64,000 bases of DNA from an uncultured Syntrophomonadaceae bacterium (lineage in GTDB: Bacteria; Bacillota; Dethiobacteria; DTU022). The notes under the pieces were generated by a model, which saw nothing but the letters and a program-made list of their open reading frames with translations, had not been told where the DNA came from and did not search any database. Position 1 is the stretch's first letter. Every line of letters starts with the position of its first letter. The translations under genes and the position numbers were made by a program. The DNA lies in the NCBI GenBank assembly GCA_964467475.1, contig CAYXQO010000003.1, forward strand, positions 48,819 through 112,818. The letters run 5' to 3'. This document shows, in pieces, positions 18,018 through 42,696 of the stretch.

Positions 18018-18112
18018 TCCGATCGACAAAGGCAAACCTGTCGAGAGGCAGGGGCGCAAAACCAAGGGCCTTAGGAATTACAATGGGCTAAGGCAGCCTG
18101 GTTGCCAGATTG
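18018..18112 (+). ncRNA. Candidate c-di-GMP-I (GEMM) riboswitch aptamer
   Basis: GGCAAACC precedes a hairpin CCUGUC-GAGA-GGCAGG with a GNRA loop. Then comes GGCGCAAAACC, a P3 hairpin GCCUUAGG...CUAAGGC, and a closing GGUUGCC. This parallels the Vc2-type consensus GGCAAACC-hairpin(GAAA)-GACGCAAAGCC. Confidence 0.6.
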
Positions 18113-18135: not shown

Positions 18136-18162
18136 GTCCCTTATTTTAAAGGGTTTTTTTTA
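18136..18162 (+). terminator. Riboswitch expression-platform terminator
   Basis: CCCTTATTTTAAAGGG followed by TTTTTTTT. Confidence 0.5.
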
Positions 18163-18342
18163 TGTATTATATCGAAAGACTGAACCCGGCTATAATATTT
18201 AACTATATTTGTTTTATTTACAATTTCAATTACTAAGGTTAACTTAAACCGGGGTAAAGGATATCGCTTTATACTTAATCCGTTTAAGCTTGATGCCGAT
18301 AATAATAACAGCAACACTAGCAGAATTTAGGTGCGATCAAAT

Positions 18343-19464
18343 ATGCGACTAGTACCCGTTTGGGCTTTGCGGCCCGGGATGACGGTAGCTAAAAAAGTTT
18401 CCAGTGGTGAGGGAGCAGCTCTTCTCAATGCCGGGGTAAAACTGGAAATGGAATATATTCAACAGCTTAAGAAGCTTAATATTCGTGGAGTTTACGTTCA
18501 TGACAACTTGATACCGGATATTGAGGTTGAAGATGTGATCCTTGATGAGACCAGGGAAAAGGCGGTAAGCCTGGTTAAGGATACTTTGACCGGAATAAAA
18601 GGCCAGAGCGATAAAAAATACACCCAGTTTATTTCTGTAAAAAAAGAATTGTCCAACCTTCTCGATGATATAGTTGGCCAGCTTCTCAGTAATAAAAATC
18701 TCACAGTTAACTTATCCGATATCAGGTATACTGACAATTACACATTTTCACATTCAGTTAATGTTGCAGTTTTGGCTATTATGACCGGGATATCGCTGGG
18801 GATGGGCAAATCTGCCTTGAAGAATATGGGGCTTGGTGCTTTTCTCCATGACCTGGGGAAAGTGGTCGTCCCCTTAAAGATATTAAACAAACCTGATCGT
18901 TTGGGTGAAGATGAGCGTCTGGAAATTGAAAGGCATCCGGCTTACGGCTTTGACCTGATCAAAAGCCGCCAGTTGTTTAACGGCCCTACACTGTCAATTG
19001 TTTACAAACATCACGAGAGAATTGATGGCAGTGGTTATCCGCAGGGTTTGTATGGAGACAAAATTGAATTATACCCCAAAGTGTGTGCTGTTGCGGATGT
19101 TTATGATGCCCTGGTATCGGATCGTCCTTATCGGCCCGGCTTTATGCCTCACAAAGCGATGGAAATAATGGATCAAGAATGTTCAGGATATGATCTTGAT
19201 ATCATGCAAACTTTTTACCACCACATTCCCGCTTACCCGGTGGGAACTATAGTGGGCTTAACTAACGGCTTTGTCGGTGTGGTGGTACACAATACCCATG
19301 GGTATCCATACCGGCCCAAAGTCAGGGTGATTTCTGACAGGGAAGATTATATGCCCCTGGATAGCTTTGAAGTAGATCTCCTGGAAAAACTTGATGTGGC
19401 TGTGGACCGGGTTTACCTGGATGATGAACTGCCGCAGCAATTATTAAACCGGGGTATATCTTGA
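18343..19464 (+). CDS. HD-GYP domain c-di-GMP phosphodiesterase
   Basis: HSVNVA...FLHDLGK...HHERIDGSGYP motifs. ATG 18343 follows a TAGGTG RBS. Confidence 0.85.
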   Translation: MRLVPVWALRPGMTVAKKVSSGEGAALLNAGVKLEMEYIQQLKKLNIRGVYVHDNLIPDIEVEDVILDETREKAVSLVKDTLTGIKGQSDKKYTQFISVKKELSNLLDDIVGQLLSNKNLTVNLSDIRYTDNYTFSHSVNVAVLAIMTGISLGMGKSALKNMGLGAFLHDLGKVVVPLKILNKPDRLGEDERLEIERHPAYGFDLIKSRQLFNGPTLSIVYKHHERIDGSGYPQGLYGDKIELYPKVCAVADVYDALVSDRPYRPGFMPHKAMEIMDQECSGYDLDIMQTFYHHIPAYPVGTIVGLTNGFVGVVVHNTHGYPYRPKVRVISDREDYMPLDSFEVDLLEKLDVAVDRVYLDDELPQQLLNRGIS

Positions 19465-26448: not shown

Positions 26449-26886
26449 GTGAAAAAAATTAACCGGGCACAACATGGCAAGACGGCAAAAACAAGTAATC
26501 AGGATAAGGCTGGCGAAAGAGGTTTGACTCGCTCAGTGGATGTCCTTGAACGCTTAAGCGTTGCTCTAAAAGAAGAAACGGCAGCAATTAACAATTTTGA
26601 TGATGAAAAGCTAAAAGAACATGGAGATATAATCCAGGCATTATTTGATGAGCTAACAGACTCTATGCCTTCTGCAAAAGATCTTTCTATTGATGAATCA
26701 AAAAACCTTTACGGCTTATTAAAGGATGTCAAACAGCACCGGGAAAAAAACCGGCAGCTCTTAGAGAAGTTGGTGAAAAATGCCGGGGAAAAAATCAATA
26801 AGCTTTCTGTGGGCAGACAAACTTTGCAAGCCTATAAAGGATTAAAACCAGATAAAGAAGAATTGTTTGTTAAGAAAAAATGCTGA
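26449..26886 (+). CDS. Hypothetical helical protein, possibly a FlgN/FliT-like flagellar chaperone (occupies the usual csrA slot)
   Basis: No CsrA motifs. Helical and K/E-rich. The start codon is uncertain. Confidence 0.35.
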   Translation: MKKINRAQHGKTAKTSNQDKAGERGLTRSVDVLERLSVALKEETAAINNFDDEKLKEHGDIIQALFDELTDSMPSAKDLSIDESKNLYGLLKDVKQHREKNRQLLEKLVKNAGEKINKLSVGRQTLQAYKGLKPDKEELFVKKKC

Positions 26887-27140
26887 GTGATTTCAGTTTA
26901 TAAAAAACCTTTTTTACAGCTACAGATACTGCTGCTGCATGTTTCATTGTCACTACCCAAAGCCCCACTATAATGCTACTAAAACCTCTTACCAGGCTTC
27001 GGTGGATTTGCTAACAGTTAAATTCATAAAAGAAATATTACAAAAAAGAAGGAATTATTAGTCCGGCAGCGAATGTAGAAAAGTGGAGGGGGCTAATTAT
27101 TAACTTTTTATAATTAATTTAAACTTTTTTTGTTTTTTTA

Positions 27141-27170
27141 TTGACCGGACAGTTATCACTTTGCTATAAT
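27141..27170 (+). promoter_or_regulatory. Sigma-A promoter of the flgB operon (TTGACC, 18-nt spacer, TATAAT)
   Basis: Read directly at 27141..27146 and 27165..27170. Confidence 0.6.
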
Positions 27171-27215
27171 GTAAGTCCAATATTGAGAAAGAACTGGTAT
27201 TAGTAAACTAAAAGA

Positions 27216-27295
27216 CTGTTAAAGGCTAACCCATAGTGATATGGGGGCGCAAAACCGTGGATCCGTCCAGTGCCGGATTGCCAGGTTGCCAGTCT
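27216..27295 (+). ncRNA. Candidate c-di-GMP-I (GEMM) riboswitch aptamer in the flgB leader
   Basis: GGCUAACC, then hairpin CCCAUA-GUGA-UAUGGG (GNRA loop), then GGCGCAAAACC, then a P3 hairpin, then GGUUGCCAG. The architecture matches the element at 18018. Confidence 0.55.
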
Positions 27296-27349
27296 CTGAT
27301 AGAAATTAAACAAGGAATTCCCATAATAAGGGAAACCTTGATTATCAAA

Positions 27350-27390
27350 GAGAGGCAGCCATTTAACCGGCTTCCTCTCTTTTTTATTTT
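27350..27390 (+). terminator. Intrinsic terminator/attenuator immediately upstream of flgB
   Basis: GAGAGGCAGCC-ATTTAACC-GGCTTCCTCTC with one mismatch, followed by TTTTTTATTTT. Confidence 0.6.
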
Positions 27391-27408
27391 CTTAACGGGG
27401 GTGTAAAT

Positions 27409-27813
27409 GTGAAAATTTTTCGCGATGAAACTGCATCAGGGATTTTGAAAGGCATGGATGCGGCGAACCTGCGCCAGCAGGTAACCGCCAACAACCTGGC
27501 CAATCTCAATACGCCTGGTTTTCAACGCAGCGATGTTTCTTTCGAAAAACAGCTCCGGGAAGCCAGGGAAAACATTGATTCCCCGTTGGCCCGGACCGAC
27601 GAAAGGCATTTTCCCCGGGTGTCTCAGCAGGAGATAGAGCCTGAGGTAAAAAAAGATACCTCCACTGTTCGCCGTATAGATGGAAGTAATGTCGATTTAG
27701 AAAGGGAAATGCTTAACCTGGTTACCAACCAGCTTCGTTACAATACATATACCCAGCAGTTAAATACCCGTTTTGATAACTGGCGCTTTGTAATTAACGA
27801 AGGGAGGCGTTAA
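27409..27813 (+). CDS. flgB: Flagellar basal-body rod protein FlgB
   Basis: NLANLNTPGFQR motif. Confidence 0.9.
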   Translation: MKIFRDETASGILKGMDAANLRQQVTANNLANLNTPGFQRSDVSFEKQLREARENIDSPLARTDERHFPRVSQQEIEPEVKKDTSTVRRIDGSNVDLEREMLNLVTNQLRYNTYTQQLNTRFDNWRFVINEGRR

Positions 27814-27815
27814 GT

Positions 27816-28283
27816 TTGGCTATGTTTCCTAATTTCCGCATTTCCGGTTCAGCCCTCACCGCTGAAAAAACTCGATTAGACACTATTGCCGGCAATATAG
27901 CGAATATGAATACTACCCGCACCGAAGAAGGAGGTCCCTACAGAAGACGAACTGTAGCTTTTTCCGAGGACCTGGCCCGTGCAGAACAGCAGGGGAGAAG
28001 GAGAATTGTCCAACCCTTTATCCCCAGCGAACGTGTACCGGGTGAAGTTGAGGGACGAGGTGTCAGGCTTGATCAGGTGATCGCCGATGATGAAGAACCA
28101 ATGCTGGTTTATGATCCCGAACACCCTGATGTCCGGGAAGACGGTTATGTAGAATATCCCAATATCGAACTGGCTAAAGAAATGACCGATATGATCACTG
28201 CTCAACGCTCATATGAAGCAAATTCAACAGCGGTAAATACCGCAAAAAGTATTTATGCCAAGGCTCTTGAAATCGGTCGATAG
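27816..28283 (+). CDS. flgC: Flagellar basal-body rod protein FlgC
   Basis: SGSALTAEKTRLDTIAGNIANMNTTRT motif. Confidence 0.9.
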   Translation: MAMFPNFRISGSALTAEKTRLDTIAGNIANMNTTRTEEGGPYRRRTVAFSEDLARAEQQGRRRIVQPFIPSERVPGEVEGRGVRLDQVIADDEEPMLVYDPEHPDVREDGYVEYPNIELAKEMTDMITAQRSYEANSTAVNTAKSIYAKALEIGR

Positions 28284-28296
28284 GAGGAAATAATAG

Positions 28297-28608
28297 ATGA
28301 TCGAGAATACAGGTGGAATCAACAGGGTTGATTTTATCGATCGTAATATTGCCACCCCGTCTACAGAAGAGAAAGATGATAAAAAAGCTCTCAGCTTTGC
28401 TGATACCCTTTTTGGAGCGCTGGGAGAAGTTAACCAGCTACAGGTCCAAGCCGACCAGGCTACTGAAGACTTGCTTACCGGTGATCTGGATAATATTCAC
28501 CAGGTTATGATTAAAACGGAGGAGGCCCGGTTGAGCCTCCAGTTAACTGGCCAGGTAGTTAACAAAGTCCTGGATGCGTACCAGGAGATCTCACGGATGC
28601 AGATCTGA
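28297..28608 (+). CDS. fliE: Flagellar hook-basal body protein FliE
   Basis: Size, position and a conserved FliE C-terminus. Confidence 0.85.
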   Translation: MIENTGGINRVDFIDRNIATPSTEEKDDKKALSFADTLFGALGEVNQLQVQADQATEDLLTGDLDNIHQVMIKTEEARLSLQLTGQVVNKVLDAYQEISRMQI

Positions 28609-28640
28609 TCAACAGTATTCGCATTATATGAGGTGCTAAC

Positions 28641-30245
28641 ATGGCTGAAGAAAATGATATGCAATCAGCTGAGAACAACTACCGGGCAGAGGACGGCTAC
28701 ATGCCGGACCCGGCAGAGCAGGAAGAAAAAAGTTACCTGAAACGGTTTTGGAGTAACCTGCAGCCCCCTGCGCGTATAGGTGTAATTGTTGTAGGCGCGC
28801 TGGCTTTTGCCGCTATTTTGATTTTATCGATAACCAGCTCTTTATCTGATCAAAAAGAAGTTTTATATCACCGGCTTAATCCCGCCGATGCCAGGGAAAT
28901 AGCTGCAGCCCTCGATGAAGATAATATTCCGTATGAACTCGAAGATGATGGGACCACTATCCTGGTTCCCCCGGAACAACGCGATCGCCTGCGCATTAAC
29001 ATGTCTCCCGACTTGCATGCCCAGGGCATCGGGTTTGAACTGTTTGAAGAAGGGGCCATGGTGGCCAGTGACTTTGAACGGCAGGCCCAGTGGCAAATTG
29101 CTTTGGAAGAAGAATTGCGCCGCACCATTGCCAGCCTTGATGCAATTGATCAGGCCCGGGTTCACCTGGCTATCACAGATGACGGATTATTTATCAGGGA
29201 AAGAGAAGATCCCTCCGCTTCAGTGTTCTTACGCCTCAGTCCCCTGACTACGTTAAGCGATGATCAGGTCCGCGGTATTGTCAGTCTGGTCTCGGGAAGT
29301 GTTGAAGGACTGAACCCGGAAAATGTGAGCGTAGTAGATGAGGGTGGAGCAGTTTTACATGATGCTTTTGCGCCAATAGATGATGATGCGGTTACCACGA
29401 CAGTGGAAGAACAGCACCAGCTTAAACGCCAGTTTGAAACTGAGCTGGAAAGCAGGCTGCGTTCAATCCTTGAACAGGTTTATGGCCCCGGTAGGGCAGT
29501 GGCCATGGTATCGGCGGAGCTCGATTTTGATAGCAGGGAACAGACCATGGTTGCTTATGACAACGATGCCGTGCCCCGGTCCACTCATCGCATTGAAGAA
29601 CAAAGTGAGAGTATGGGGGCTCCGGTTGAAGAAGTTGGCGAAGCGAATATTCCGGGGCAGGCGGCTGCGGTTGCCGGCGAGGGTGAGTCAAGTTATGAAC
29701 TTCTTGAAGAGATAGCTAATTATGAAGTTGGCGAAACCAGGGAGTATGTGGAAACTGCACCGGGGCAGGTGGTTAATCTTAATACTGCTGTGATTGTTGA
29801 CAATGACGGCGGAGATCCTTTTATGGAAGAGCAGGTTGCCGAACTGGTAAATTCTGCTGTGGGATTGGATGAAGCCCGGGGCGATACCTTGAGTGTGCAG
29901 ATGATCCCCTTTGAGGCCCCCGATGTTCCGGAGCCGATCCCGGAAGAACCGCCGGTGGCTCTTCCTTTACCCTTGCCCTGGCTGATCGCGATTGCAGCTG
30001 CTCTATTGATTGCGATAATCGCCTTAATTCTATTCTTGCGGGCCCGGGCAAAACGGCGTCGTGAAGAGCAGCAAGCTGAGATGGATGCGCTTTCTTTGGA
30101 AGATCAGATGGAAGCCAGGGTGCGCGAAGAAACAGAAGAAGAGCCGGGTGAGGCAGAGAAGAAGGCAAAAATGATCCGTGATATGGCCAAGGAAGAACCA
30201 GAAAGTGTAGCTAACCTGCTAAAAACTTGGTTGACGGAGGAGTAA
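28641..30245 (+). CDS. fliF: Flagellar M-ring protein FliF
   Basis: Two TM segments flanking a periplasmic domain. Position after fliE. Confidence 0.9.
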   Translation: MAEENDMQSAENNYRAEDGYMPDPAEQEEKSYLKRFWSNLQPPARIGVIVVGALAFAAILILSITSSLSDQKEVLYHRLNPADAREIAAALDEDNIPYELEDDGTTILVPPEQRDRLRINMSPDLHAQGIGFELFEEGAMVASDFERQAQWQIALEEELRRTIASLDAIDQARVHLAITDDGLFIREREDPSASVFLRLSPLTTLSDDQVRGIVSLVSGSVEGLNPENVSVVDEGGAVLHDAFAPIDDDAVTTTVEEQHQLKRQFETELESRLRSILEQVYGPGRAVAMVSAELDFDSREQTMVAYDNDAVPRSTHRIEEQSESMGAPVEEVGEANIPGQAAAVAGEGESSYELLEEIANYEVGETREYVETAPGQVVNLNTAVIVDNDGGDPFMEEQVAELVNSAVGLDEARGDTLSVQMIPFEAPDVPEPIPEEPPVALPLPLPWLIAIAAALLIAIIALILFLRARAKRRREEQQAEMDALSLEDQMEARVREETEEEPGEAEKKAKMIRDMAKEEPESVANLLKTWLTEE

Positions 30246-30251
30246 ATTTTT

Positions 30252-31265
30252 ATGACTACAGCCACCAGGAAAATATCAGGGCTAAAAAAAATTGCGATTT
30301 TCTTGTTAGCGCTCGGCCCTAATCTTTCCGCGGGAATTTTGAAGCACTTTAGTGAAGCGGAAATTGAAAAAATCAGCATGGAAATCGCCAATACCACCAG
30401 GGTGGAAAGAGATAACCTGGATGAAATACTTGATGAATTTACTGCTATCCATGAAGCCCAGCAGTACATGGTCAATGGTGGTTATGATTATGCCAAAGAG
30501 GTCCTTGAAAGAACCCTGGGGCCGCAGAAAGCCGGCGATTTAATGAAGAAACTCAGGGAACAGAGTAAAGTAAAACCCTTTACCTTTGTTCGCGAGGCCG
30601 ACACAAAGCAGCTAGTCAATATGATCAGCCAGGAGCATCCGCAAACTATCGCATTTATTCTTTCTTACCTTGATGCTGATCAATCGGCAATGGTGATATC
30701 TGAATTGCCACAGGATATTCAAAGTGATATTGCCAGGCGAATTGCTGTAATGGAAAGAACTTCGCCCCAGATTATTAAGGGGGTTGAAAGTGTGATGAAG
30801 GAACGGCTCTCGACAATTTTTCAACAGGATTTTACTTCTGCCGGAGGTATCGGAGCGGTGGTCGAAATTTTGAATAATGTAGATCGAGGTACGGAAAAAT
30901 TAATTCTTGAAGAGTTGGAAAAAGAAGATGCTGAACTGGCAGAAGAAATCAGGCAGCAGATGTTCATCTTCGAAGATATAATCAGCCTTGACGATGCTTC
31001 TATCCAGAGAGTAATCCGTGATCTCGATCACAACGATATCGCGATGGCCCTGAAAGGAGCCAGCGAAGAAGTTAAAAACAGGGTTTTCAAAAATATTTCC
31101 AAACGGGCTGGAGAAATGCTCGAAGAAAATATGGAGTTTATGGGGCCGCTCAGGCTGCGTGAAGTCGAAGATGCTCAGCAGCGTATCGTGGCTGTAATCA
31201 GACGCCTGGATGAGAGCGGAGAAATAATCATATCACGGGGTGGCGACGATGCCATTATCGCCTAA
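30252..31265 (+). CDS. fliG: Flagellar motor switch protein FliG
   Basis: FliG family sequence, 337 aa. Confidence 0.9.
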   Translation: MTTATRKISGLKKIAIFLLALGPNLSAGILKHFSEAEIEKISMEIANTTRVERDNLDEILDEFTAIHEAQQYMVNGGYDYAKEVLERTLGPQKAGDLMKKLREQSKVKPFTFVREADTKQLVNMISQEHPQTIAFILSYLDADQSAMVISELPQDIQSDIARRIAVMERTSPQIIKGVESVMKERLSTIFQQDFTSAGGIGAVVEILNNVDRGTEKLILEELEKEDAELAEEIRQQMFIFEDIISLDDASIQRVIRDLDHNDIAMALKGASEEVKNRVFKNISKRAGEMLEENMEFMGPLRLREVEDAQQRIVAVIRRLDESGEIIISRGGDDAIIA

Positions 31266-32145
31266 AAAAATTTATAAGCAACCGCAAATAGAAGGTGCTT
31301 CTTTGTATGATCCCGGGGATCCGGAAAAGGAAGCGCTCCCGGAAAACAATTATGATGCACCGATTCCGGGGAATAGCACCTACAATAATGGGCATGATCA
31401 AGAAAAAGTGGTGCTATGGCCGCAACCTGTCGAGGAAAATTATACCGAAAATAATACATTTGAACAGGGTACCACAGAAGAAAAAAATGGGGAAGAAGTA
31501 GAAGATTATCACAGCACCGGACAGGCTGACCAAAAACAAGAAAAGAAGAAGACCCCCGAAGAGATCGCAGAAGAGATATTGGAAGAAAAAATGGAACAGT
31601 GTATCCAGGAAGGCTACGAAAAGGGCAAAACTAAGGCAGAAAAGGAATGTCGCGAGATGCGACAGGAAGCTGAAGCTAAGTTCAAGGAAGCAGAGGAATG
31701 TCTTCAGGAATCTCGCAGGCGTGCACAAGAAATTGTGGCGGCCTCGGAAAACAAAATCGTCGAACTTTCTGTGGCAGTAGCAGAAAGATTGCTTCACAAA
31801 CAACTTGATATCAACCAGGAAACTATAACCGGGATTGTCCGCGAAACCCTGAACATTCTAAATGGCGGCGAGCAGGTTGAAGTTTTTGTCAATCCTGCAG
31901 AAATCGATATTTGCCTTGAATACAGAGAGAAGTTGAAAGAGGAATTTACCGAGATAATCAAGCTTGATTTAATTGCAGATGAAAATGTGTCGCGGGGTAG
32001 TTGCCGGGTTGAATCAGAAAGTGGCGTGGCCGAGTATCTACTGGGGGAAGAGAAAAAACAACTCGAACAAATGCTTTTAAAGGTGGCCCGTGAAGGGGTA
32101 ACCGAACAAACGGGAGAGGCGGAATCTGTTTATGGCAGGTACTGA
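31240..32145 (+). CDS. fliH: Flagellar assembly protein FliH
   Basis: Position and a FliH-like C-terminus. An alternative start lies at ATG 31249. Confidence 0.8.
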   Translation: MATMPLSPKKIYKQPQIEGASLYDPGDPEKEALPENNYDAPIPGNSTYNNGHDQEKVVLWPQPVEENYTENNTFEQGTTEEKNGEEVEDYHSTGQADQKQEKKKTPEEIAEEILEEKMEQCIQEGYEKGKTKAEKECREMRQEAEAKFKEAEECLQESRRRAQEIVAASENKIVELSVAVAERLLHKQLDINQETITGIVRETLNILNGGEQVEVFVNPAEIDICLEYREKLKEEFTEIIKLDLIADENVSRGSCRVESESGVAEYLLGEEKKQLEQMLLKVAREGVTEQTGEAESVYGRY

Positions 32146-33457
32146 AGCAAGCAATGGTAAATATTTTTCCACTCTGACCGCCATGCCCGGAGGACGGGTT
32201 AAGGGTAAGGTCCGCCAGGTAATCGGACTGGTGATCGAGGTAAGCGGTATCCGTCCTTTTATCGGGGAGATATGCAACATACATTCCTACACGGGAGAAA
32301 CTTTTGTTGCCGAAGTGGTTGGATTTCGGGAAAAATGTGCCCTGCTGATGCCGCTTGGTAACCTGCACGGTATTTCACCAGGTTGTGTGGTTGAACCGAC
32401 AGGTAAGAGTTTTGCCGTTCAGGTAAACGAAAAATTAAAAGGTAAGGTATTAGACGGACTCGGTTATCTCTTGGATAGTGGCCACCCCCCGTTAAAGCCT
32501 GATGAAGGAGCTGAATATCCGGTTCACAACAATCCACCCAACCCGATGGAAAGGCGGCCCATTGAAGCTATCTTGCCGACGGGGGTAAAGGCTATTGACG
32601 GTCTTTTAACCTGCGGCGAAGGTCAGAGAGTAGGCATATTTTCCGGAAGCGGGGTTGGGAAAAGTACATTACTGGGAATGATCGCCCGCCACAGCGAGTC
32701 GGACGTTAATGTGATTGCCCTGATCGGGGAAAGAGGCCGCGAGGTGGGTGATTTTATCCGCCAGGACCTGGGTGAAGAAGGCTTGAGACGTTCTATAGTC
32801 GTGGTTTCAACTTCTGACCGTCCTGCTTTGGAACGGGTTATGGGGGGATTAGTGGCGGCAACTATTGCCGAGTATTTCCGGGACCGTGGCAAAAAAGTAA
32901 TTTTTATGATGGATTCCGTAACCAGGTTTTGTATGGCTCAAAGAGAAATCGGTCTTGCCGTAGGCGAACCGCCTTCTACCAAGGGTTATACTCCCTCGGT
33001 TTTTGCCCTGATTCCACGTTTTCTTGAAAGATCGGGGACTTCGAGTAAAGGTAGTATCACCGGTTTTTATACAGTGCTGGTTGACGGTGATGATTTTACA
33101 GAACCGATTACCGATGCTGTCCGCAGTGTTCTTGACGGGCACATCGTATTAAGCCGCAAACTGGCTTCGCAAAATCATTTCCCGGCCACCGATGTGTTAA
33201 ACAGTAACAGTCGTTTAATGCTGAATTTAATTGAAGAAAAGCACAATGAAGTAGCCGCTGAGTCTCGCAAGCTTCTATCAAAATATGAATCGATGGAAGA
33301 CTTGATTAATATCGGCGCGTATGTCCCGGGTTCACAGCCGGAAGTAGACCGGGCCATCCAAAAACGTCCCGAAATCATGAAATTTCTGCGCCAGGAACCC
33401 GGCGAACGTTTTGAACTAAAAGAAACAATCAATCAACTGGAAAAGGTAGTTCGTTAA
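32132..33457 (+). CDS. fliI: Flagellum-specific ATPase FliI
   Basis: Walker A GSGVGKST and F1-ATPase beta-like fold. Confidence 0.95.
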   Translation: MAGTEASNGKYFSTLTAMPGGRVKGKVRQVIGLVIEVSGIRPFIGEICNIHSYTGETFVAEVVGFREKCALLMPLGNLHGISPGCVVEPTGKSFAVQVNEKLKGKVLDGLGYLLDSGHPPLKPDEGAEYPVHNNPPNPMERRPIEAILPTGVKAIDGLLTCGEGQRVGIFSGSGVGKSTLLGMIARHSESDVNVIALIGERGREVGDFIRQDLGEEGLRRSIVVVSTSDRPALERVMGGLVAATIAEYFRDRGKKVIFMMDSVTRFCMAQREIGLAVGEPPSTKGYTPSVFALIPRFLERSGTSSKGSITGFYTVLVDGDDFTEPITDAVRSVLDGHIVLSRKLASQNHFPATDVLNSNSRLMLNLIEEKHNEVAAESRKLLSKYESMEDLINIGAYVPGSQPEVDRAIQKRPEIMKFLRQEPGERFELKETINQLEKVVR

Positions 33458-33498
33458 ACTGTTCCTAGTCGTAGACGGCAGTTGAAAGGAGCCAGGCT

Positions 33499-33948
33499 AT
33501 GAGATCCTTTAACTTCAGGTTGCAGCGCTTACTTGGATTTCGCAATATCCAGGAAGAAGAGGCTAAGAAGGAACTCAACCTGCGCTGGAAAGCTCTTGAG
33601 GAAGAAAATGCCAGGCTCAGCGGGCTAAAGTACGAAGAAGAATCTTTGCTCGAAAAATGGCAAAATCAGGTGGAACAAAATATCGAGTTACCTCGTTTAC
33701 AAGTAACCCAGGAATACAGCCGCCGTTTGGATAACTTGCTAATGAACCAGGCTGAACAATACAACAAGACAAAGTCATGGGTAGAAGAGCAACGGGAAGT
33801 GGCTATGCAGTGTTGGCGGAAGAAAAAAGTTCTCGAAATATTGAAAGACAAGGCTAAAGATGAGCATATTTACCAGGAAAAAATTAACGAGCAAAAGCTT
33901 ATCGATGAAATAGTTCTGAACAACTATAACCGGAAAGGAGGTGATTAA
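33499..33948 (+). CDS. fliJ: Flagellar export protein FliJ
   Basis: Coiled coil of 149 aa positioned after fliI. Confidence 0.8.
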   Translation: MRSFNFRLQRLLGFRNIQEEEAKKELNLRWKALEEENARLSGLKYEEESLLEKWQNQVEQNIELPRLQVTQEYSRRLDNLLMNQAEQYNKTKSWVEEQREVAMQCWRKKKVLEILKDKAKDEHIYQEKINEQKLIDEIVLNNYNRKGGD

Positions 33949-33949
33949 A

Positions 33950-35479
33950 TTGAAGGTAGACATGGCATTCCTGGAGCAGCTTGACCTTGATTTCAATGGA
34001 AAAGTTGCTGCGGGAAAAGGTTCACCTTCCGGAGAATTTGCCGCAATATTACAAGGGCTTACTTCCGGTGAAGTTTCTGTTGACCAGGGTTCTTCGGAAA
34101 TTGAAGCAGCTCTGGAAAAACTGGAAAACTTCCTGGACATGGATCAGCTTATTACGGACGCAGGCCAGCCGGCCGGAGGTTTCCTGGAAGGTGAAGAAGC
34201 GGAGCAGCTCCTGCAAAAAATAGCAGAAAAGATTTTATCTGTTCTAATGCAGGGCTCTCCATTAGCCGGTTCAGAAACTGCTACAATCACTGATTCCAGC
34301 TTTGAAGGTTCTATTGCAAAACTGGCCGATGAACTCCTGACGGAAAGGGGAGAACAGTTAACCGCTGATTTAAGAGAGACTCTCAAGCAAGTCTCTGCCG
34401 AAGAACAGGCTGGTTTAGAGTTTGAGGAAAGTAGCAGTAAAGCAAGCATGTTCTTGCAGCAGTTGGCGGAAAAAGTTCTCGCTGCGCTTTCCGGTGGTAG
34501 TACCGGAAAAGAGGGTGAAGCTGCCCCTAAAAGTGGAAGCAAGGTTGATTGGTCTTTATTGGCCGGTGATCCCGGCGGCGAAGCATTACTTTATAAAGTA
34601 GCCGGAAAGCTTAAGTCCGGGGGCGAAGGGGAATTGCCCCCAGATTTAAAGGCTGCTTTAAAAGAGGCAGAGTTTCTCGGAGAAAAAGCAAAAGCTGTTT
34701 TAACGGATACCGAGCTTTCTGGGGGAGATGGTAAAAAAGCGTTCATTGAAGAAGCCCTTGAAAAAGCGGGGTTGAAAATGGAGAGCGATGAAAAACCGCT
34801 ACAAAGTAAAGAAGGCGGTGAAAAACTGAAAGCTGATGCGGATCTTCAAAAGGCCCTGGAAGCAGCCCGCAACCAGTCAAAAGCTGAGTATGCCGGCAAA
34901 GCAGGCGAGCAAAAAGCGAAAGCTGCCTATGCCCAGAAGACCTCACCAGCAGTTGGGCAGGATAGCATTTTGCAGCAGTCTGCACTAATGGCTAACAGCA
35001 ATATCCAGGCTGGAAAAGAGTTGCCCCCTCAACTCGAAACTTTGCGGGAAAATATCATGCAGCAGCTTGAAGGACGGTTAACCTACTTCCGGGAAACCGG
35101 TTCAACACCGGCGGAAATGCGGATGACCCTGCACCCCCCTGAACTGGGTGAAGTTACCATCAGGGTGTTTTCGAGACAAGGGCAGCTTTCTGCATCAATT
35201 ATTACGGAATCTGCTGTTGTCAAGGAGATCCTGGAAAGCAGTATTACTGAGCTGCGGCAGCGCTTAAACTTCAGCAATATCCAGTTTGAGCAGATCGATG
35301 TATCTACCCAAAGCCAGCAGTTCAATGGATCAAGTCGGTTTGGCGCAGGGGAACACAACCACGAAAACTTACCCGGTGGCGATCATGAAGGGAAAAGTCC
35401 GCTTGCGGGTGAGCAGGAAGTGGCAGAGTCCATGGTTACAGCCGATGCTGCGAAAAGCGGCATCGATTACTGGGCTTAA
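33950..35479 (+). CDS. fliK: Flagellar hook-length control protein FliK
   Basis: C-terminal Flg_hook domain (RMTLHPPELGEVTIRV). An acidic, low-complexity N-terminal part. TTG 33950 follows a GGAGG RBS. Confidence 0.75.
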   Translation: MKVDMAFLEQLDLDFNGKVAAGKGSPSGEFAAILQGLTSGEVSVDQGSSEIEAALEKLENFLDMDQLITDAGQPAGGFLEGEEAEQLLQKIAEKILSVLMQGSPLAGSETATITDSSFEGSIAKLADELLTERGEQLTADLRETLKQVSAEEQAGLEFEESSSKASMFLQQLAEKVLAALSGGSTGKEGEAAPKSGSKVDWSLLAGDPGGEALLYKVAGKLKSGGEGELPPDLKAALKEAEFLGEKAKAVLTDTELSGGDGKKAFIEEALEKAGLKMESDEKPLQSKEGGEKLKADADLQKALEAARNQSKAEYAGKAGEQKAKAAYAQKTSPAVGQDSILQQSALMANSNIQAGKELPPQLETLRENIMQQLEGRLTYFRETGSTPAEMRMTLHPPELGEVTIRVFSRQGQLSASIITESAVVKEILESSITELRQRLNFSNIQFEQIDVSTQSQQFNGSSRFGAGEHNHENLPGGDHEGKSPLAGEQEVAESMVTADAAKSGIDYWA

Positions 35480-35494
35480 AGGAGGCATGGCAAG

Positions 35495-35983
35495 ATGAAT
35501 GAAATAACAGGTGTTAACCAGGCAGTACCGGCACAAAACCAGGCTGCCGAAAAGGCGCCGGAAACAGCTCCTGCACCGGCTCCCCGGGAGGAACCTCCGG
35601 CGGGGCAAATGCCCGGGCAGGAGTTTGACAGCGACTTATTTCTGCAACTCCTGGTTACCCAGTTGCGGTACCAGGATCCCATGTCTGAACAGCAGGATAC
35701 CGGTGATATGATCACCCAGCTGACTATGTTTACCCTGGTTGAACAGGTGACCAACCTGCAGGAAGCCGTGGAAGAACAGGCTGAATCACAGGGTAATCAC
35801 CAGGCCCTTAACTTGTTGAACCAGCAGGTTGAAATTTCGGGCAAAGGTGAAGGGGAGAATATCCATGGAATGGTTAGCGCAGTTGAATTCCGCAGTTCCG
35901 GTCCCTACGTTACTGTAGGCGATCATCAGTATCCGCTCAGCGATGTCGTAAAAGTTGAAGGGGGCGGAAGCGAAGATGGTTGA
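35495..35983 (+). CDS. flgD: Flagellar hook capping protein FlgD
   Basis: FLQLLVTQLRYQDPM motif. Confidence 0.9.
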   Translation: MNEITGVNQAVPAQNQAAEKAPETAPAPAPREEPPAGQMPGQEFDSDLFLQLLVTQLRYQDPMSEQQDTGDMITQLTMFTLVEQVTNLQEAVEEQAESQGNHQALNLLNQQVEISGKGEGENIHGMVSAVEFRSSGPYVTVGDHQYPLSDVVKVEGGGSEDG

Positions 35984-36374
35984 TAAAACCGGACCGCATA
36001 TCAGGCCCACCGATCCGGCTGCCAAACCGCAGCCTGGAAAAACGGGCAAGGAAACTACTAAAAAAGATGGTGAAAACCTTTCTTTCCATCAAATCCTGGA
36101 TCATCTCCAGGAAAAACAGGAAGTTGTTTTTTCTGCCCATGCCAAAGAGCGGATTGAAAGCCGCCAGATTGATCTGGGGGCAGAGGATATGCAGCGAATA
36201 GAAGAGGCCATGGATAAAGTGCAGGAAAAAGGCGGACGCTCCTCCCTGCTCATGTTCGGCGATGTAGCCCTGTTGGCCAGTGTTACCAACCGGACCATCA
36301 TCACCGCCGTTGACGGAAAAGAGGAGCAGGAGCAAGTGTTTACCGGAATTGATAGCGCGGTTATTGTAAAGTAA
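35976..36374 (+). CDS. Flagellar operon protein (TIGR02530-like small protein between flgD and flgE)
   Basis: FHQILD...VFSAHAKERIESR...LLMFGDVALLASVTNRTIITAV is conserved in Firmicutes fla operons. Confidence 0.6.
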   Translation: MVDKTGPHIRPTDPAAKPQPGKTGKETTKKDGENLSFHQILDHLQEKQEVVFSAHAKERIESRQIDLGAEDMQRIEEAMDKVQEKGGRSSLLMFGDVALLASVTNRTIITAVDGKEEQEQVFTGIDSAVIVK

Positions 36375-36481
36375 AGGCCGGACCTCCTGAATTAGAGGAA
36401 GCCTTGTCCTGCTGACCGACCGAGGCAGGACGCCGCGCCGCTTAAAATAAGGCTTAAAAGGCCAAAAGGAGGTTATTTTTA

Positions 36482-38425
36482 ATGATTCGTTCAATGAGTG
36501 CAGCTGTTACCGGCTTAAGAGGCCACCAGCAAAAACTCGATGTAGTTGGCAACAACATCGCCAACGTTAATACAACCGGTTTTAAAAAATCACAGGCCCG
36601 TTTTGAGGACCTGATCAGCCAGACCATCCAGGGAGCGACCGGCCCGATGGAAGAACGGGGCGGCATTAACCCTTCCCAGATAGGTTTAGGGATGGCCGTT
36701 TCCTCCATTACCGATATTCACACCCAGGGATCAATTACCGATACGGACCGCGAGACCGACCTGGCCATTGAAGGCGAAGGCTATTTTGTCGTTACCGACG
36801 GGGAAATGGAGTATTTCACCCGGGACGGTTCATTCGGCGTTGACCAGAACGGCCATATTGTTAACGATAACGGTCTCAGGCTGCTCGATGTCGACGGCAA
36901 TGAAATCAACATTCCAGTAGATGACGACATGGTCGCCCAGGCTACGGAAAACAAGCGCTTTGCCGGCAACCTTGATGCCCGGGCCTTTACCGAAGCCACC
37001 CCGGGACAGGCAATCGGTGCGGCAGAGCTGGCCGAGGTTGGCAATGGCTATCTCCTGGGAGCTGAGGATGATGTCATAAGTTCCTTGGAAGGCCATGATG
37101 ATGATTTAGAAGTTGAGTTTACTATTGATGGTGATGAACAAACAATGACTATAGAGGAGGACGATTTGGGGGAGATTCAGACCCAGGATCAGCTCCTTGC
37201 CGCGCTTAATTATGGTCAGTTTACCGATGACGAAGGTGAGCTTATAGAAATTGATGGCTGGGATGGTCTGGAGGAATTAGGTGCTCGTGCCTCCTTCGAC
37301 GACGAAGATCACCTGTTGATTACTTCTTTATCTGAAGGAGAAGGCTCCGTGGTTGAAGTTGATGGCGACGAAGATGATGTCGAAGCTTTGTTTGGCACCG
37401 GAGATGATCGTGTTGTTCGCTCAGGAGATGATGTCGAAAAACTGGTGGACCTTGAAGATGACCTCGAATTCGATGTTGTTGTCGATGGCGGCGATGCCCA
37501 GACGATTACTGTAGATATGGATGGTATCACCACCCGCGAGGCACTCCTGGAAGCGCTTAATGAAGAGCTTGACGGTGCCACCGCTGAATTTGACGACGGC
37601 GACAACCTGGTGATCAGCTCCGACACGCGGGGGCCGGAATCGTCGGTGGAGTTAGATGCTGACGATGATAATGTGGCATTCCAGACCCTTTTTGGAGAAG
37701 AAGGAGAGTGGAACGAAACCACCGGTGAAGTCGATGAGCACACTTTCCCCTACTATGTGCACGACTCCCTCGGCCGCCGCTACGACATCGATTATAACTT
37801 CAGGCCGGTTGACGACAATGTATGGGAATACCAGATGGAGGTAACCGATGAAGCCGGCAACCTGATTGAAGTTGATGAAGGCGCTGAAGGGACCCTGGTA
37901 TTTGATGAAAACGGAGGGTTAAACGAAGACGCTTCCGATATGCCGAACCTGGTCTTCGACCCACCGGGCGAAGCAGCGGTGGTGAATGTTGAACCTGACT
38001 TTAGCTCAGTTACCCAGCTGGCAGGGTCGAACAACCTCCTGGTTCGCGACCAGGACGGCTATGAAGCCGGCGAACTGGCCGCCTTTGACATTGACCGGGC
38101 CGGGGTGGTAGCGGGCACTTACACCAACGGGATGCGGCAGGAGTTCGGTCAAATTGGGATGGCCACTTTTTCCAACCCGGAAGGTTTACGCAAGGAAGGT
38201 GGCAACCTTTTCCTGGATACGGATAACTCCGGTGACCCGCAGATTGGCGCACCCGGGGAAGGTGGCCGCGGGTTGGTCCAGTCATCAGCGCTCGAGCTGT
38301 CCAATACAGACCTTTCTTACGAATTTACTGAGCTAATCACGACCAGCCGGGCTTTTCAAGCCAACACCAGGGTGGTAACCACCTCGGATGAAGTACTTAC
38401 TGAAGTAGTGAACATGAAGCGTTAA
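36482..38425 (+). CDS. flgE: Flagellar hook protein FlgE, with a large acidic repetitive insertion
   Basis: N-terminal MIRSMSAAVTGLRGHQQKLDVVGNNIANVNTTGFK and a conserved C-terminus. Length is 647 aa. Confidence 0.9.
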   Translation: MIRSMSAAVTGLRGHQQKLDVVGNNIANVNTTGFKKSQARFEDLISQTIQGATGPMEERGGINPSQIGLGMAVSSITDIHTQGSITDTDRETDLAIEGEGYFVVTDGEMEYFTRDGSFGVDQNGHIVNDNGLRLLDVDGNEINIPVDDDMVAQATENKRFAGNLDARAFTEATPGQAIGAAELAEVGNGYLLGAEDDVISSLEGHDDDLEVEFTIDGDEQTMTIEEDDLGEIQTQDQLLAALNYGQFTDDEGELIEIDGWDGLEELGARASFDDEDHLLITSLSEGEGSVVEVDGDEDDVEALFGTGDDRVVRSGDDVEKLVDLEDDLEFDVVVDGGDAQTITVDMDGITTREALLEALNEELDGATAEFDDGDNLVISSDTRGPESSVELDADDDNVAFQTLFGEEGEWNETTGEVDEHTFPYYVHDSLGRRYDIDYNFRPVDDNVWEYQMEVTDEAGNLIEVDEGAEGTLVFDENGGLNEDASDMPNLVFDPPGEAAVVNVEPDFSSVTQLAGSNNLLVRDQDGYEAGELAAFDIDRAGVVAGTYTNGMRQEFGQIGMATFSNPEGLRKEGGNLFLDTDNSGDPQIGAPGEGGRGLVQSSALELSNTDLSYEFTELITTSRAFQANTRVVTTSDEVLTEVVNMKR

Positions 38426-38498
38426 GATCTATCCGGAACCGGCCGGGAGGTTTCCCTTCCTTCCGGCCGGTCGGTCTAAAAAATGCGGAGAGATATGC

Positions 38499-39323
38499 AT
38501 GAATAAATACGATTTTCTTACAGCGGTAGGGATAATAGTGGGAGTTGGCCTGGTCCTTATGGGGATCATTGTTCAAGATGGTGAGCTGGGCGCTTTTATG
38601 GACCCGGCGGGAATGATGATTACCTTAGGAGGGACATTTGGGGCTACCCTGGTTAGTTTTAGGCAGGGTGAAATAAAAACGGTTGTTCAGGTTACTAAAA
38701 ATGTATTTTTCCAAAAGGAACAATCGATTATCGATTTACATGACCGGTTTACCGATTTAGCCCAAAAAGCAAGGCGTGAAGGTTTGCTTGTCCTGGAAGA
38801 TGAACTGGACGAAATTGAAGATCCCTTCTTTCGCAATGGTTTGCAGATGGTAATCGACGGTTTTGAACCGGACAACATCCGCAGTATTTTAAATGCTGAG
38901 TTAACTTCCATGGAAGCGCGCCATGAACAGGGACAAAAGTTGTTTAGCACTATGGGAACTTTTTCTCCGGCATTTGGAATGATCGGCACCTTGATTGGTT
39001 TGATCATGATGCTGGCGGAACTTGATGACCCCGATGCTATCGGGCCGGGAATGTCCGTAGCTTTGCTTACTACTTTTTACGGGGTGTTTCTGGCTAACCT
39101 GGTGTTTATTCCCATATCTAACAAGCTTGCCCTGCACAGTGAAGAAGAATCTCGCATGAAAGAGATTATAATCGAGGCATTGTTGGCCCTGCAGAGCGGC
39201 ATAAACCCGCGTTTGTTGAAGGAACAGATTAAGTCTTATTTTTCACCGCAGGAAAAGAAACTGTTGGAAGAAGCGCAAAAACGTGCCGAGGAAGAAGAGG
39301 AGGACGATTTAGTCGATGTCTAG
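38499..39323 (+). CDS. motA: Flagellar stator protein MotA
   Basis: MotA/TolQ/ExbB family with 4 TM segments. Confidence 0.85.
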   Translation: MNKYDFLTAVGIIVGVGLVLMGIIVQDGELGAFMDPAGMMITLGGTFGATLVSFRQGEIKTVVQVTKNVFFQKEQSIIDLHDRFTDLAQKARREGLLVLEDELDEIEDPFFRNGLQMVIDGFEPDNIRSILNAELTSMEARHEQGQKLFSTMGTFSPAFGMIGTLIGLIMMLAELDDPDAIGPGMSVALLTTFYGVFLANLVFIPISNKLALHSEEESRMKEIIIEALLALQSGINPRLLKEQIKSYFSPQEKKLLEEAQKRAEEEEEDDLVDV

Positions 39324-40116
39324 TCCAGGCCAAAGGCGCCCGAACAATCTGCGAAAAGGAAAAAACAAGGAATCAGGACAAAAGGGTAGTCCGCACTGGA
39401 TGCAGACTTATTCCGACATGGTCACGTTGCTGTTAGCTTTTTTTATTTTGTTATTTTCCATGTCGGTAATTGATATTGAGCGATTTCAGACGGTGATAAT
39501 ATCAATTCAAACCTCTTTTCTTGGAGATACCGGGATCATGGATCAAACTGAAGAACCCCATGAACCAACCGGCGAAGCCCTTAGCCATGAAGACGGGGTT
39601 TTTTCTGAGGCTGATTTACGGGAGCACCTGGAACGGATGGAAGAAGCCGAGGAAGTGAAGGAAGAGGTAAGGGCTTTTTTGGCAGAAATGGGCCTGGAAG
39701 GTGAAGTGGAACTGAGCCTTGATGAACGCGGTGTGGTTATGGAAATGCCCGACTATATCTTCTTTGAAAGGGCTCAGGCTGATTTGATTCCGGAAGCAAG
39801 AGACTTACTCGAAGAATTTGCGGATTTTTTCCGCCAAATGGAGTACGGGATTATTGTTGAGGGGCATACCTGCCACTTGCCGATGAATACCCCGGAGTTT
39901 CCTACTAACTGGGAACTATCAGTGATCAGGGCGGTAAGGGTGATCCGCTACCTCTCTGAAGAGCAAGGTGTCGATCCCGATCGTTTGACCGCTACCGGTT
40001 ATGGCGAACACCGGCCGCTTGAATCAAACGAAACGGCAGAGGGACGTGCCAGGAACCGCCGGGTTACTATTGTTCTTTCTGTATATGAGCCTGAAGAGCA
40101 GCGTGAAGCTTACTAG
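39316..40116 (+). CDS. motB: Flagellar stator protein MotB (OmpA-like C-terminus)
   Basis: N-terminal TM with a conserved Asp region. The C-terminal OmpA-like domain carries NRRVTIV. Confidence 0.85.
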   Translation: MSSPGQRRPNNLRKGKNKESGQKGSPHWMQTYSDMVTLLLAFFILLFSMSVIDIERFQTVIISIQTSFLGDTGIMDQTEEPHEPTGEALSHEDGVFSEADLREHLERMEEAEEVKEEVRAFLAEMGLEGEVELSLDERGVVMEMPDYIFFERAQADLIPEARDLLEEFADFFRQMEYGIIVEGHTCHLPMNTPEFPTNWELSVIRAVRVIRYLSEEQGVDPDRLTATGYGEHRPLESNETAEGRARNRRVTIVLSVYEPEEQREAY

Positions 40117-40136
40117 GACTTGGAGGTAGATTGACG

Positions 40137-40649
40137 GTGACTGCTAAAGAAAAAGAAGAAAAGAATGAAGAAAAGACTGCTGAAAAAAGTGAAAAAAAGG
40201 GGAAAAAACGAAGCCCGTTGTTAAAGATAATCTTAGTTTTGGTCCCGGTTATGATTCTTGGCGGTGGGGCCGCATTCTACTTCATTAGTGGGGAGCTTCC
40301 GTTTTTCGGCGATGGGGTTATTGGTGGAGAAGAAAGCGACAGCCCGCCCCGTTACAGCTATTCAATGCAGGAGTTCCAGGTCAACTTGGCTGATCCGGGG
40401 ACCAGTCGTTTTTTAAGAACTACTTTTGATTTGGCTTATGATGCTCGCGGGTTAACCAGGGAAATCGAAGACCGGGAACCGGAGCTGCGTTCGGAAATCA
40501 TTGCTATCCTGCGTAGTAAATATATTGAAGACCTCGAGGAACCGGGTGGCATGAAAAACTTGGAAAAAGAAATCCTGGATAAACTTAATGAAATGCTTGA
40601 TTCAGGAGAAGTAAAAGCTATTTATTTTAAGGAATTTATTTTCCAATAA
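40137..40649 (+). CDS. fliL: Flagellar basal body-associated protein FliL
   Basis: A single TM plus a FliL domain. GTG 40137 follows a GGAGGTAG RBS. Confidence 0.8.
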   Translation: MTAKEKEEKNEEKTAEKSEKKGKKRSPLLKIILVLVPVMILGGGAAFYFISGELPFFGDGVIGGEESDSPPRYSYSMQEFQVNLADPGTSRFLRTTFDLAYDARGLTREIEDREPELRSEIIAILRSKYIEDLEEPGGMKNLEKEILDKLNEMLDSGEVKAIYFKEFIFQ

Positions 40650-40666
40650 AGCAAAGGGGTATTATA

Positions 40667-41098
40667 ATGGCCGGCAGATCATGGGAAGAATACAGGCCTG
40701 TTTCCGGAGAAAGCACTGAAGAAACTAATCACTGGGAAGAGGCAACGGAGCAGGGGAAACCTGAAATAAAGAAAGTAGTCTTCCAACCGCTTTCTGAAAG
40801 TGAACCTGTTTCTCCCAGACGCGGTATTGCTTCGGAATTTCATGGTGTCAATTTGACTATAAGTGCTGAACTGGGAAAAGTCACCTTAAAGGTCCGTGAT
40901 TTAATAAATCTGGAAGAAGAATCAATCCTGCAGTTAAACCGGGTGGCCGATGAAAAAGTTTTAATTCTAGTCAATGAAACTCCCTTTGCACACGGCGAAA
41001 TAGTGGTGATTAACGACCGTTTCGGTGTAAGGATAACTTCTTTGGTAGATGAAGAAGAGAAAAGCACAGACGATTTTGATCCGGGGAAAGAGAGCTAA
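40667..41098 (+). CDS. FliN-domain (SpoA) protein, an extra FliN paralog at the ancestral fliN position
   Basis: C-terminal LNRVADEKVLILVNETPFAHGEIVVINDRFGVRITSLV is the FliN/SpoA signature. Confidence 0.75.
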   Translation: MAGRSWEEYRPVSGESTEETNHWEEATEQGKPEIKKVVFQPLSESEPVSPRRGIASEFHGVNLTISAELGKVTLKVRDLINLEEESILQLNRVADEKVLILVNETPFAHGEIVVINDRFGVRITSLVDEEEKSTDDFDPGKES

Positions 41099-41101
41099 AT
41101 A

Positions 41102-41461
41102 ATGGGTAGCTATGGAATGATTTTACAATCAATGGGCTTTTTGGTTCTGATCGTGGTTTTGGCTTACCTGGCGATTCGGTACGGGCTTCGTTCGGTTTAC
41201 CGCGGCATCAGTGGGGGGTATATGAAAGTCCTGGAAAGGGTCCCCCTTGATCATAAGAGTGGCAGCTCCCTGGCTTTGATCCAGGTGGGCAAAGAAATTT
41301 ACCTTGTGGGGACTGCGCAAAACAATGTAACCTTGCTGAAAACATATGACTGGAAAGATTTGCAGTATCTTGAGGACAACCTTTCAGAGAATCCGGTTGA
41401 CCTAAAAAACTCTTTTTCCCGGATTATGCATAGTTTTAAAAAAGATAGTGGTAACGAATAG
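41102..41461 (+). CDS. fliO: Flagellar biosynthesis protein FliO/FliZ
   Basis: Small single-TM protein upstream of fliP. Confidence 0.75.
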   Translation: MGSYGMILQSMGFLVLIVVLAYLAIRYGLRSVYRGISGGYMKVLERVPLDHKSGSSLALIQVGKEIYLVGTAQNNVTLLKTYDWKDLQYLEDNLSENPVDLKNSFSRIMHSFKKDSGNE

Positions 41462-41491
41462 ATTAATTATGAAAGCAGTGGCGAAAAACAA

Positions 41492-42271: not shown

Positions 42272-42285
42272 AGGGGTTTTTATCT

Positions 42286-42552: not shown

Positions 42553-42696
42553 TGTTAGTTAAGGTCAGCAGGTGGTTTTCAGTGCTCTTTAATAATGAAA
42601 ATTCTAGCTGTCTACGGTTTGTAGGGGCATGGTTGAACAGGGATAATGCCGGGGGACTGAAAAGAGAAGCCCCGGACCCGGGATGGGGGAGATGAC

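Follow-up and report, generated by a model that had tools for sequence, protein, structure and literature searches.

Control of a master flagellar operon by a riboswitch is known from one experimentally studied case, the element Cd1 (Cdi1_3) of Clostridioides difficile, which is a class I riboswitch for cyclic diguanylate (c-di-GMP) located in the leader of flgB. With this element c-di-GMP raises the amount of the terminated product made in vitro, northern blots show a terminated RNA of ~160 nucleotides (nt), and overproduction of a diguanylate cyclase lowers both flgB mRNA and motility (PMC6366702, PMC3649979). The flgB operon of C. difficile is 23 kb long (PMC6366702). A comparable leader was analysed here in a 64-kb stretch of DNA from an uncultured Syntrophomonadaceae bacterium (contig CAYXQO010000003.1), hereafter called the window; coordinates are positions in this window, and the genes and elements described are all on its + strand. 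The intergenic region in question spans 522 nt, from the end of an open reading frame (ORF) of 145 amino acids (aa) at 26886 to the GTG start codon of flgB at 27409, and it contains a class I c-di-GMP (GEMM-I) aptamer followed by mutually exclusive antiterminator and terminator helices. As judged from sequence and predicted structure, the flgB-leader element is very probably a class I c-di-GMP riboswitch which acts as a transcription-termination OFF switch.

The resemblance to Cd1 lies in the position of a class I aptamer in the 5' leader of an early flagellar flgB operon that includes sigD. The OFF logic of Cd1, in which transcription stops early at an intrinsic terminator when c-di-GMP is high, was shown experimentally (PMC6366702, PMC3649979), whereas that of the window element is predicted from the wiring of its antiterminator and terminator. 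The two leaders also differ in layout, as the promoter of Cd1 is found 496 bp from flgB with a long leader beyond the terminator, whereas the window leader should measure only ~232 nt, with 19 nt between the end of its terminator and the start codon. Moreover, the C. difficile leader carries a RecV-invertible flagellar switch (PMC3649979, PMC5386303, PMC7446863) which the window leader does not have. Such a switch was looked for and rejected, since there are no flanking inverted repeats between the aptamer and flgB, and an inverted-repeat search of 26880..27420 returned nothing but AT-rich chance pairs and the arms of the terminator. The host is also unlike C. difficile, belonging to a distant lineage whose nearest relatives are metagenome-assembled genomes (MAGs) labelled Syntrophomonadaceae. 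Another Firmicute GEMM-I aptamer, Bc1 of the Bacillus cereus group, likewise acts through rho-independent terminators; dual regulation is reported for it, together with a long platform in which 28 bp lie between two terminators (PMC11218506), whereas a single terminator and a single antiterminator are found in the window. The mechanism is therefore not new, having already been shown for Cd1, and the present leader is a well-supported but ordinary further example which leaves the current understanding of c-di-GMP signalling unchanged. It nevertheless extends the one studied case to a distant, uncultured and anaerobic clade, in which all relatives sampled (FlgB identity of at least 49%) share the arrangement.

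The aptamer was recognised by cmscan in a search of the whole window against 4227 Rfam families, in which RF01051 (c-di-GMP-I), whose gathering score is 35, matched 27214..27293 with 59.7 bits (E = 3.6e-9). The match extends over the full length of the model (positions 1-87, in 80 nt) with high posterior probabilities. The original prediction for this DNA had proposed a GEMM-like aptamer at 27216..27295 and had suggested an RF01051 search to check it; this search has now borne the proposal out, and the other elements it listed were also found at or within a few bases of where it had put them. A standard Rfam-based annotation would flag this aptamer as well. Its parts follow each other in the order GGCUAACC, a GUGA-capped hairpin, GGCGCAAAACC, a second hairpin and GGUUGCCAG. 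Aligned to the family model, the aptamer has canonical bases for ligand contact, with G27224, A27251 and C27289 standing for G20, A47 and C92 of Vc2, the aptamer from Vibrio cholerae that is the structural archetype of RF01051, and with C27248 and G27280 as the equivalents of the interhelical C-G pair. In the known structure the three bases contact c-di-GMP and the C-G pair holds the two helices together (PMC4744006, PMC5888326). The two-helix fold and the GNRA-capped first hairpin are also shared with Vc2. Unlike Vc2, the window aptamer has GUGA as tetraloop and lacks the tetraloop-receptor segment (11 nt of the consensus, CUAA..UAUG, are deleted in its alignment), and the expression platform and the regulated gene differ as well.

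Support for the fold was also obtained from 16 related aptamer sequences, among which RNAalifold found compensatory double changes in 12 of the 21 consensus pairs. This run did not recover P1, nor the short G-C/C-G helix that the Rfam model has, and P1 was therefore checked by direct pairing. It covaries among the relatives (AGACUG/CAGUCU, GACUG/CGGUC and AGACCG/CGGUCU), with changes from U-A to U-G and from U-A to C-G. As judged from the family match and the binding-site bases, it can be predicted with very high confidence that the leader element is a c-di-GMP-I riboswitch, which would bind this ligand.

The same Rfam clan (CL00126) holds a variant model, RF03167 (c-di-GMP-I-GGC), which includes the P1 stem. 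In a narrow permissive search this model gave 56.4 bits on the flgB leader, under its gathering score of 59. The position which distinguishes the two models was read from their Rfam consensus lines (GACGCGAA in RF03167 vs GACGCAAA in RF01051) and is the A47 equivalent, where RF03167 has G and the window has A; the flgB aptamer was therefore filed under RF01051. What is meant by 'GGC' is not described in the main text of Weinberg 2017 (PMC5737381). The near-equal score on the flgB element, and the fact that several homologous flgB leaders are matched best by RF03167, could speak for a different ligand, such as 3',3'-cyclic GMP-AMP (cGAMP) as in GEMM-Ib or the ligand of the 'GGC' variant. In addition, the base equivalent to G20 is C in one related leader (L010:1332-1408) and A in another (L011:1325-1403), with A47 and C92 kept in both, and specificity may thus drift within the clade. 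The selectivity of GEMM-Ib goes with a base other than G at position 20, where A is the hallmark of cGAMP-selective members, whereas in the window this base is G. The contact positions of the window aptamer are G, A and C as in Vc2, its A stands exactly where the RF03167 consensus departs, and the gathering score of RF03167 is not reached. With these canonical contact bases a different ligand is therefore extremely unlikely in the window, and c-di-GMP is retained as the predicted ligand.

The part of the leader downstream of the aptamer provides the expression platform. The two arms of the terminator, AAAGAGAGGCAGCC (27347..27360) and GGCUUCCUCUCUUU (27369..27382), are 93% complementary and form a hairpin of -19.3 to -19.9 kcal/mol, which is followed by UUUAUUUU to 27390. 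A hairpin with U-tract had been expected at 27350..27390, about 20 nt before the start codon, which agrees well with what was found (Table 1). A single internal mismatch was the only reason why a simple terminator scan had missed this hairpin. The entire 5' arm of the terminator can also be taken up by another helix, in which the 3' strands of the aptamer (P3 and P1) and the 7 nt that follow them pair with 27342..27360. This antiterminator duplex has an energy of -20.9 kcal/mol, compared with a mean of -7.8 kcal/mol (standard deviation 2.6) for duplexes with shuffled partners (z = -5.0), and none of 500 shuffles was as good. When 27280..27366 is folded as one piece a stem of -31.3 kcal/mol results, with a linker hairpin at its tip that also forms alone in the terminator state. 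The aptamer 3' strands can thus pair with the terminator 5' arm and ligand binding would block this pairing, which gives the wiring of an OFF switch; an aptamer, an antiterminator and a terminator arranged in this way are the standard OFF design. The suggestion that the direction mirrors that of C. difficile gains support from this antiterminator.

The opposite direction, in which binding of c-di-GMP to the same aptamer would promote read-through into flgB, has to be considered since some GEMM-I riboswitches do activate, such as Cdi1_1 of C. difficile with an induction of about 10-fold (PMC3649979). Sequence alone does not prove a direction, and the minimum-energy fold of the full leader contains aptamer and terminator together. 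Nevertheless the terminator stem does not overlap the aptamer, and the sole strong alternative partner of its 5' arm is the aptamer's own 3' strand, so that stabilisation of the aptamer would free the terminator and favour termination. Moreover, flagella turned on at high c-di-GMP would contradict both what is known of this messenger and the precedent of C. difficile (PMC6366702). An ON switch is accordingly regarded as very unlikely, and the OFF reading is followed below.

Folding of the nascent transcript was approached stepwise, by computing the minimum-energy structure at increasing lengths from the predicted start. The intact aptamer is part of this structure up to a 3' end at 27345. With 3' ends at 27362..27375 the antiterminator becomes the minimum-energy fold, P1 and the second helix being opened, and it takes the whole terminator 3' arm, down to 27382, for the combination of aptamer and terminator to regain the minimum.

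From these elements the following operation can be proposed. Transcription would begin at the sigma-A-type promoter. At low c-di-GMP the 3' strands of the aptamer would be unlocked and would pair with the antiterminator 3' strand as the polymerase transcribes it; the antiterminator, capped by the linker hairpin, would then occupy the terminator 5' arm, no terminator would form, and the polymerase would read through into flgB and the other flagellar genes including sigD. This supposes that the unliganded aptamer surrenders its strand in the short interval before the terminator 3' arm is made. At high c-di-GMP the ligand would be held by G27224, A27251 and C27289, P1 and the second helix would be stabilised and the antiterminator 5' strand sequestered, so that the terminator with its U-tract would form and transcription would halt ~20 nt before flgB.

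The arrangement was followed in related genomes by a FlgB search with one genome per GTDB species, which gave 44 loci. The closest relatives (84% to 49% FlgB identity) are MAGs labelled Syntrophomonadaceae, Bacillota or Clostridia, several of them from soda-lake sediments. Each of the 13 GTDB species whose FlgB is at least 49% identical (leaders L003-L015) has a GEMM-clan match above threshold, the GEMM-I matches ending 84-123 nt upstream of flgB; the aptamer is conserved across an alkaliphilic Syntrophomonadaceae-like clade. Among the more distant loci searched, L016-L036, no GEMM match was found except in L026. A metagenome scan yielded three further distinct leaders (L051, L056 and L057), all with the aptamer, together with near-copies of known leaders (L047, L048, L055 and L058), and no GEMM-I aptamer was seen upstream of flgB on the metagenome contigs L063, L065 and L066 (FlgB identity at most 47%). 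The metagenome lineages are largely the same as those of the genome scan and therefore add little power for covariation.

The expression platform was compared in 14 homologous leaders, namely the 13 from MAGs (L003-L015) and the distant L026. A hairpin and U-tract terminator is found in 13 of the 14, and also in L051. Conservation of the hairpin in relatives had been named beforehand as a point on which the idea could fall, and aptamer and hairpin with U-tract are both kept in the related genomes. In the leader alignment both the aptamer and the GGCAGCC terminator arm are conserved; behind this arm come its complement and a T-run. The core of this arm is GGCAGCC or GGCAGC in L006-L010 and L014, with variants in L003 (GGCAGCU), L011 (GACAACC), L012 (GGCAAC) and L013 (GGCGGCAGC). 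At the position of the linker most homologous leaders have a hairpin, the sequence of which is not conserved. When the leaders were shortened to end before the terminator 3' arm, the minimum-energy fold paired the aptamer GGYUGCC with the terminator 5' arm in nine of the 14, and in seven of the 14 the antiterminator duplex reached z <= -3 against shuffles; the pairing recurs in L051. At the Y position an aptamer C always faces G (L003, L006, L010 and L014) and a partner A always faces an aptamer U (L011 and L012). The distal part of the helix differs completely among species and is still complementary, as UGAUAG/UUAUCA in the window, UCUAUAAU/GUUAUAGA in L006 and CUGU/ACAG in L010. Co-variation of the antiterminator helix thus appears limited but consistent. 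The GEMM-I aptamers of L015 (L015:1283-1370, 87.1 bits) and L058 (L058:361-449, 85.8 bits), both upstream of flgB, are the best-scoring of the set.

Several results weigh against this interpretation. The start site, termination and the binding of the ligand are predictions, and in the narrower Rfam search RF03167 comes out about level with RF01051. Without ligand the complete leader favours aptamer plus terminator (-63.7 kcal/mol) over the fold in which the antiterminator is forced (-56.2 kcal/mol). With this difference of ~7.5 kcal/mol the model relies on a kinetic, co-transcriptional competition, as is the case for most transcriptional riboswitches. Furthermore, a window transcript started at the aptamer and cut before the end of the terminator folds with a slightly different pairing of the terminator 5' arm. 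Among the relatives, the register is shifted in L004 and L005, where the P1 3' strand alone takes part and its GUCUC pairs with GAGAC in the terminator arm (z about -1.5, not significant), and the antiterminator duplexes of L008, L009, L011 and L013 are also weak against shuffles. Finally, L015 has the aptamer and no recognisable intrinsic terminator between it and the start codon; its expression platform may differ, for example by translational control.

The persistence of the terminator in the ligand-free minimum-energy fold of the window leader would also suit translational regulation, or an unregulated attenuator with the aptamer acting in another way, through RNA stability or as a stand-alone small RNA. 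Terminated riboswitch transcripts of about 160 nt do accumulate as small RNAs in C. difficile (PMC3649979). However, there is no visible helix sequestering the Shine-Dalgarno sequence or the start codon of the window gene, both of which are outside every strong helix in the leader folds, and a translational mechanism is therefore not indicated. The complementarity between aptamer strand and terminator arm, which no shuffle equalled and which recurs across species, would moreover be left unexplained. Explanations of this kind seem scarcely credible to us beside the transcriptional OFF switch.

Table 1. Features of the flgB leader and of the genes downstream of it (window coordinates)
Feature	Position	Strand	Details
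Sigma-A-type promoter	27141..27170	+	-35 TTGACC 27141..27146, 18-nt spacer, -10 TATAAT 27165..27170
c-di-GMP-I (GEMM-I) aptamer including P1	27213..27295	+	RF01051 match, covariation, contact bases
Aptamer P1	27213..27218 with 27290..27295	+	AGACUG pairs with CAGUCU
Aptamer first hairpin	27230..27245	+	GUGA (GNRA) loop 27236..27239
Aptamer second helix	27254..27288	+	
Antiterminator 5' strand	27284..27302	+	GGUUGCC-AG-UCU-C-UGAUAG; aptamer P3 and P1 3' strands plus 7 nt
Linker hairpin	27311..27340	+	CAAGG..UUCCC-loop-GGGAA.CCUUG; about -12 kcal/mol; tip of the antiterminator
Antiterminator 3' strand	27342..27360	+	UUAUCA-A-AGA-GA-GGCAGCC; includes entire terminator 5' arm 27347..27360
Intrinsic terminator	27347..27390	+	stem 27347..27360 with 27369..27382, 8-nt loop, U-tract UUUUUUAUUUU 27380..27390
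Shine-Dalgarno sequence and flgB start	27397..27403 and 27409..27411	+	GGGGGUG and GTG; both outside terminator stem
flgB-to-DUF6115 genes, first part	27409..50059	+	Pfam: flgB, flgC, fliE, fliF, fliG, fliH, fliI, fliJ, fliK, flgD
flgB-to-DUF6115 genes, middle	within 27409..50059	+	Pfam: small flagellar ORF, flgE, motA, motB, fliL, fliN-like gene, fliO, fliP, (fliQ)
flgB-to-DUF6115 genes, last part	within 27409..50059	+	Pfam: fliR, flhB, flhA, flhF, flhG, sigD/fliA, DUF6115 gene
Later flagellar and chemotaxis genes	50224..59936	+	Pfam: two flgF/G-like genes, fliM, fliN, CheC-FliN fusion (FliY-like)
Later genes, continued	within 50224..59936	+	Pfam: cheA, cheY-like receiver gene, cheD, cheB, cheR

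The promoter proposed originally, TTGACC-18-TATAAT, is present and has 11 of the 12 consensus matches, with a TG extended -10 element (TGcTATAAT, 27162..27170). The promoter block TTGACC..TGCTATAAT is kept in the leader alignment in the window and in L003-L007, L009 and L010, and L008 has the variant TGTTATAAT. Transcription is predicted to start near 27177 (unmapped), and ~36 nt of unstructured leader would then precede the aptamer. The segment 27178..27410 (233 nt, the leader and the first two bases of the start codon) is more stable than its shuffles (z = -3.17). The flgB product matches Pfam Flg_bb_rod and its N-terminus MKIFRDET agrees with the homologues. Promoter, aptamer, antiterminator, terminator and start codon are all contained within 270 nt, which makes for a compact and readable expression platform. 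The same compactness suits the leader for use as a natural template when termination is assayed in vitro, and the arrangement offers a simple marker for predicting c-di-GMP-repressed motility from a MAG sequence alone.

As to the reach of the switch, the original prediction had it gating the whole ~32 kb from flgB to cheR. The genes are co-directional and separated by small gaps, the full extent being the part that is less firm. The gaps in 27409..50059 do not exceed 107 nt apart from the stretch that should hold fliQ, and a sigma-70-family factor (Pfam) occupies the sigD/fliA position. After sigD and the DUF6115 gene, and before the flgF/G-like genes, there is a gap of 164 nt (50060..50223), the largest intergenic gap of the flagellar and chemotaxis cluster, which may be an operon boundary or hold an internal promoter. 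No clear terminator, promoter or sigma-D box was found in it by scanning and by reading of the sequence, so that neither an internal terminator nor a sigma-D promoter could be adopted there, and the terminator scan gave no convincing internal terminator on the + strand of the cluster. This gap falls where the fla/che operon of Bacillus subtilis and the flgB operon of C. difficile end, and the 22.7 kb from flgB to sigD/DUF6115 are therefore the safer estimate of direct gating; that these genes are co-transcribed and gated directly is a reasonable inference. The stretch is the counterpart of the C. difficile operon of 23 kb (PMC6366702). The switch may also gate the full 32 kb. As sigD is within the gated part, later flagellar genes would in any case be affected indirectly through SigD, which is also so in C. 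difficile (PMC6366702, PMC3649979).

A second GEMM-clan aptamer is found 9 kb upstream of the flgB switch, at 18022..18110 (+). An element near 18018 had been noted originally and it proved to be real, with RF03167 as its best model (71.6 bits). Unlike the RF03167 consensus it has A at the A47 equivalent, so that both aptamers of the window have the canonical binding site. It is followed, inside the flagellar supercluster, by a gene (18331..19464, +) with HD_5/HD domains, putatively a c-di-GMP phosphodiesterase of the HD-GYP type. Downstream of this aptamer, CUUUGUCGGUC is complementary to its 5' side, and further on, at 18138..18161, there is a weak hairpin CCCUUAUUUUAAAGGG with U8. These features point to an expression platform of another kind, and a feedback loop may exist here. 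A tentative extension, which we hold to be unlikely on present evidence, is that the flgB switch forms one half of a c-di-GMP circuit made of riboswitches only, with the 18022..18110 element as the other half, and that in the lineages of L010 and L011, where the G20-equivalent base has changed, flagellar control may be re-targeted to another cyclic dinucleotide. If this were true, the same messenger would set its own degradation and the entry into the flagellar hierarchy.

Some other features of the flgB intergenic region can be mentioned. A permissive Rfam search for other RNA families, covering 541 nt of intergenic sequence, gave only GEMM-clan matches and far sub-threshold noise (mir-485, CsrC and BSR0709), and none was adopted. 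A second promoter-like site, TTGTCA-16-TATAAT (26947..26974, +; 11 of 12 matches), precedes the main promoter by ~190 nt. As the alignment with L003-L006 shows no conservation of this site, it was rejected as operon promoter. By eye, no fit to sigma-D or sigma-54 spacing was seen in a conserved block at ~27047..27075 (+), ~70-95 nt upstream of the flgB -35 box (AAGAAGGAATTATTAGTCCGGCAGCGAATG). The block has AGGAAYT and AGCGAA without any change in the window and L003-L006, with AT-rich and poorly conserved surroundings, and it may be a candidate transcription-factor site. The 145-aa ORF (26449..26886, +) has no Pfam match at E <= 1e-5; it comes directly after fliW, in a position often held by csrA or flagellin-related genes.

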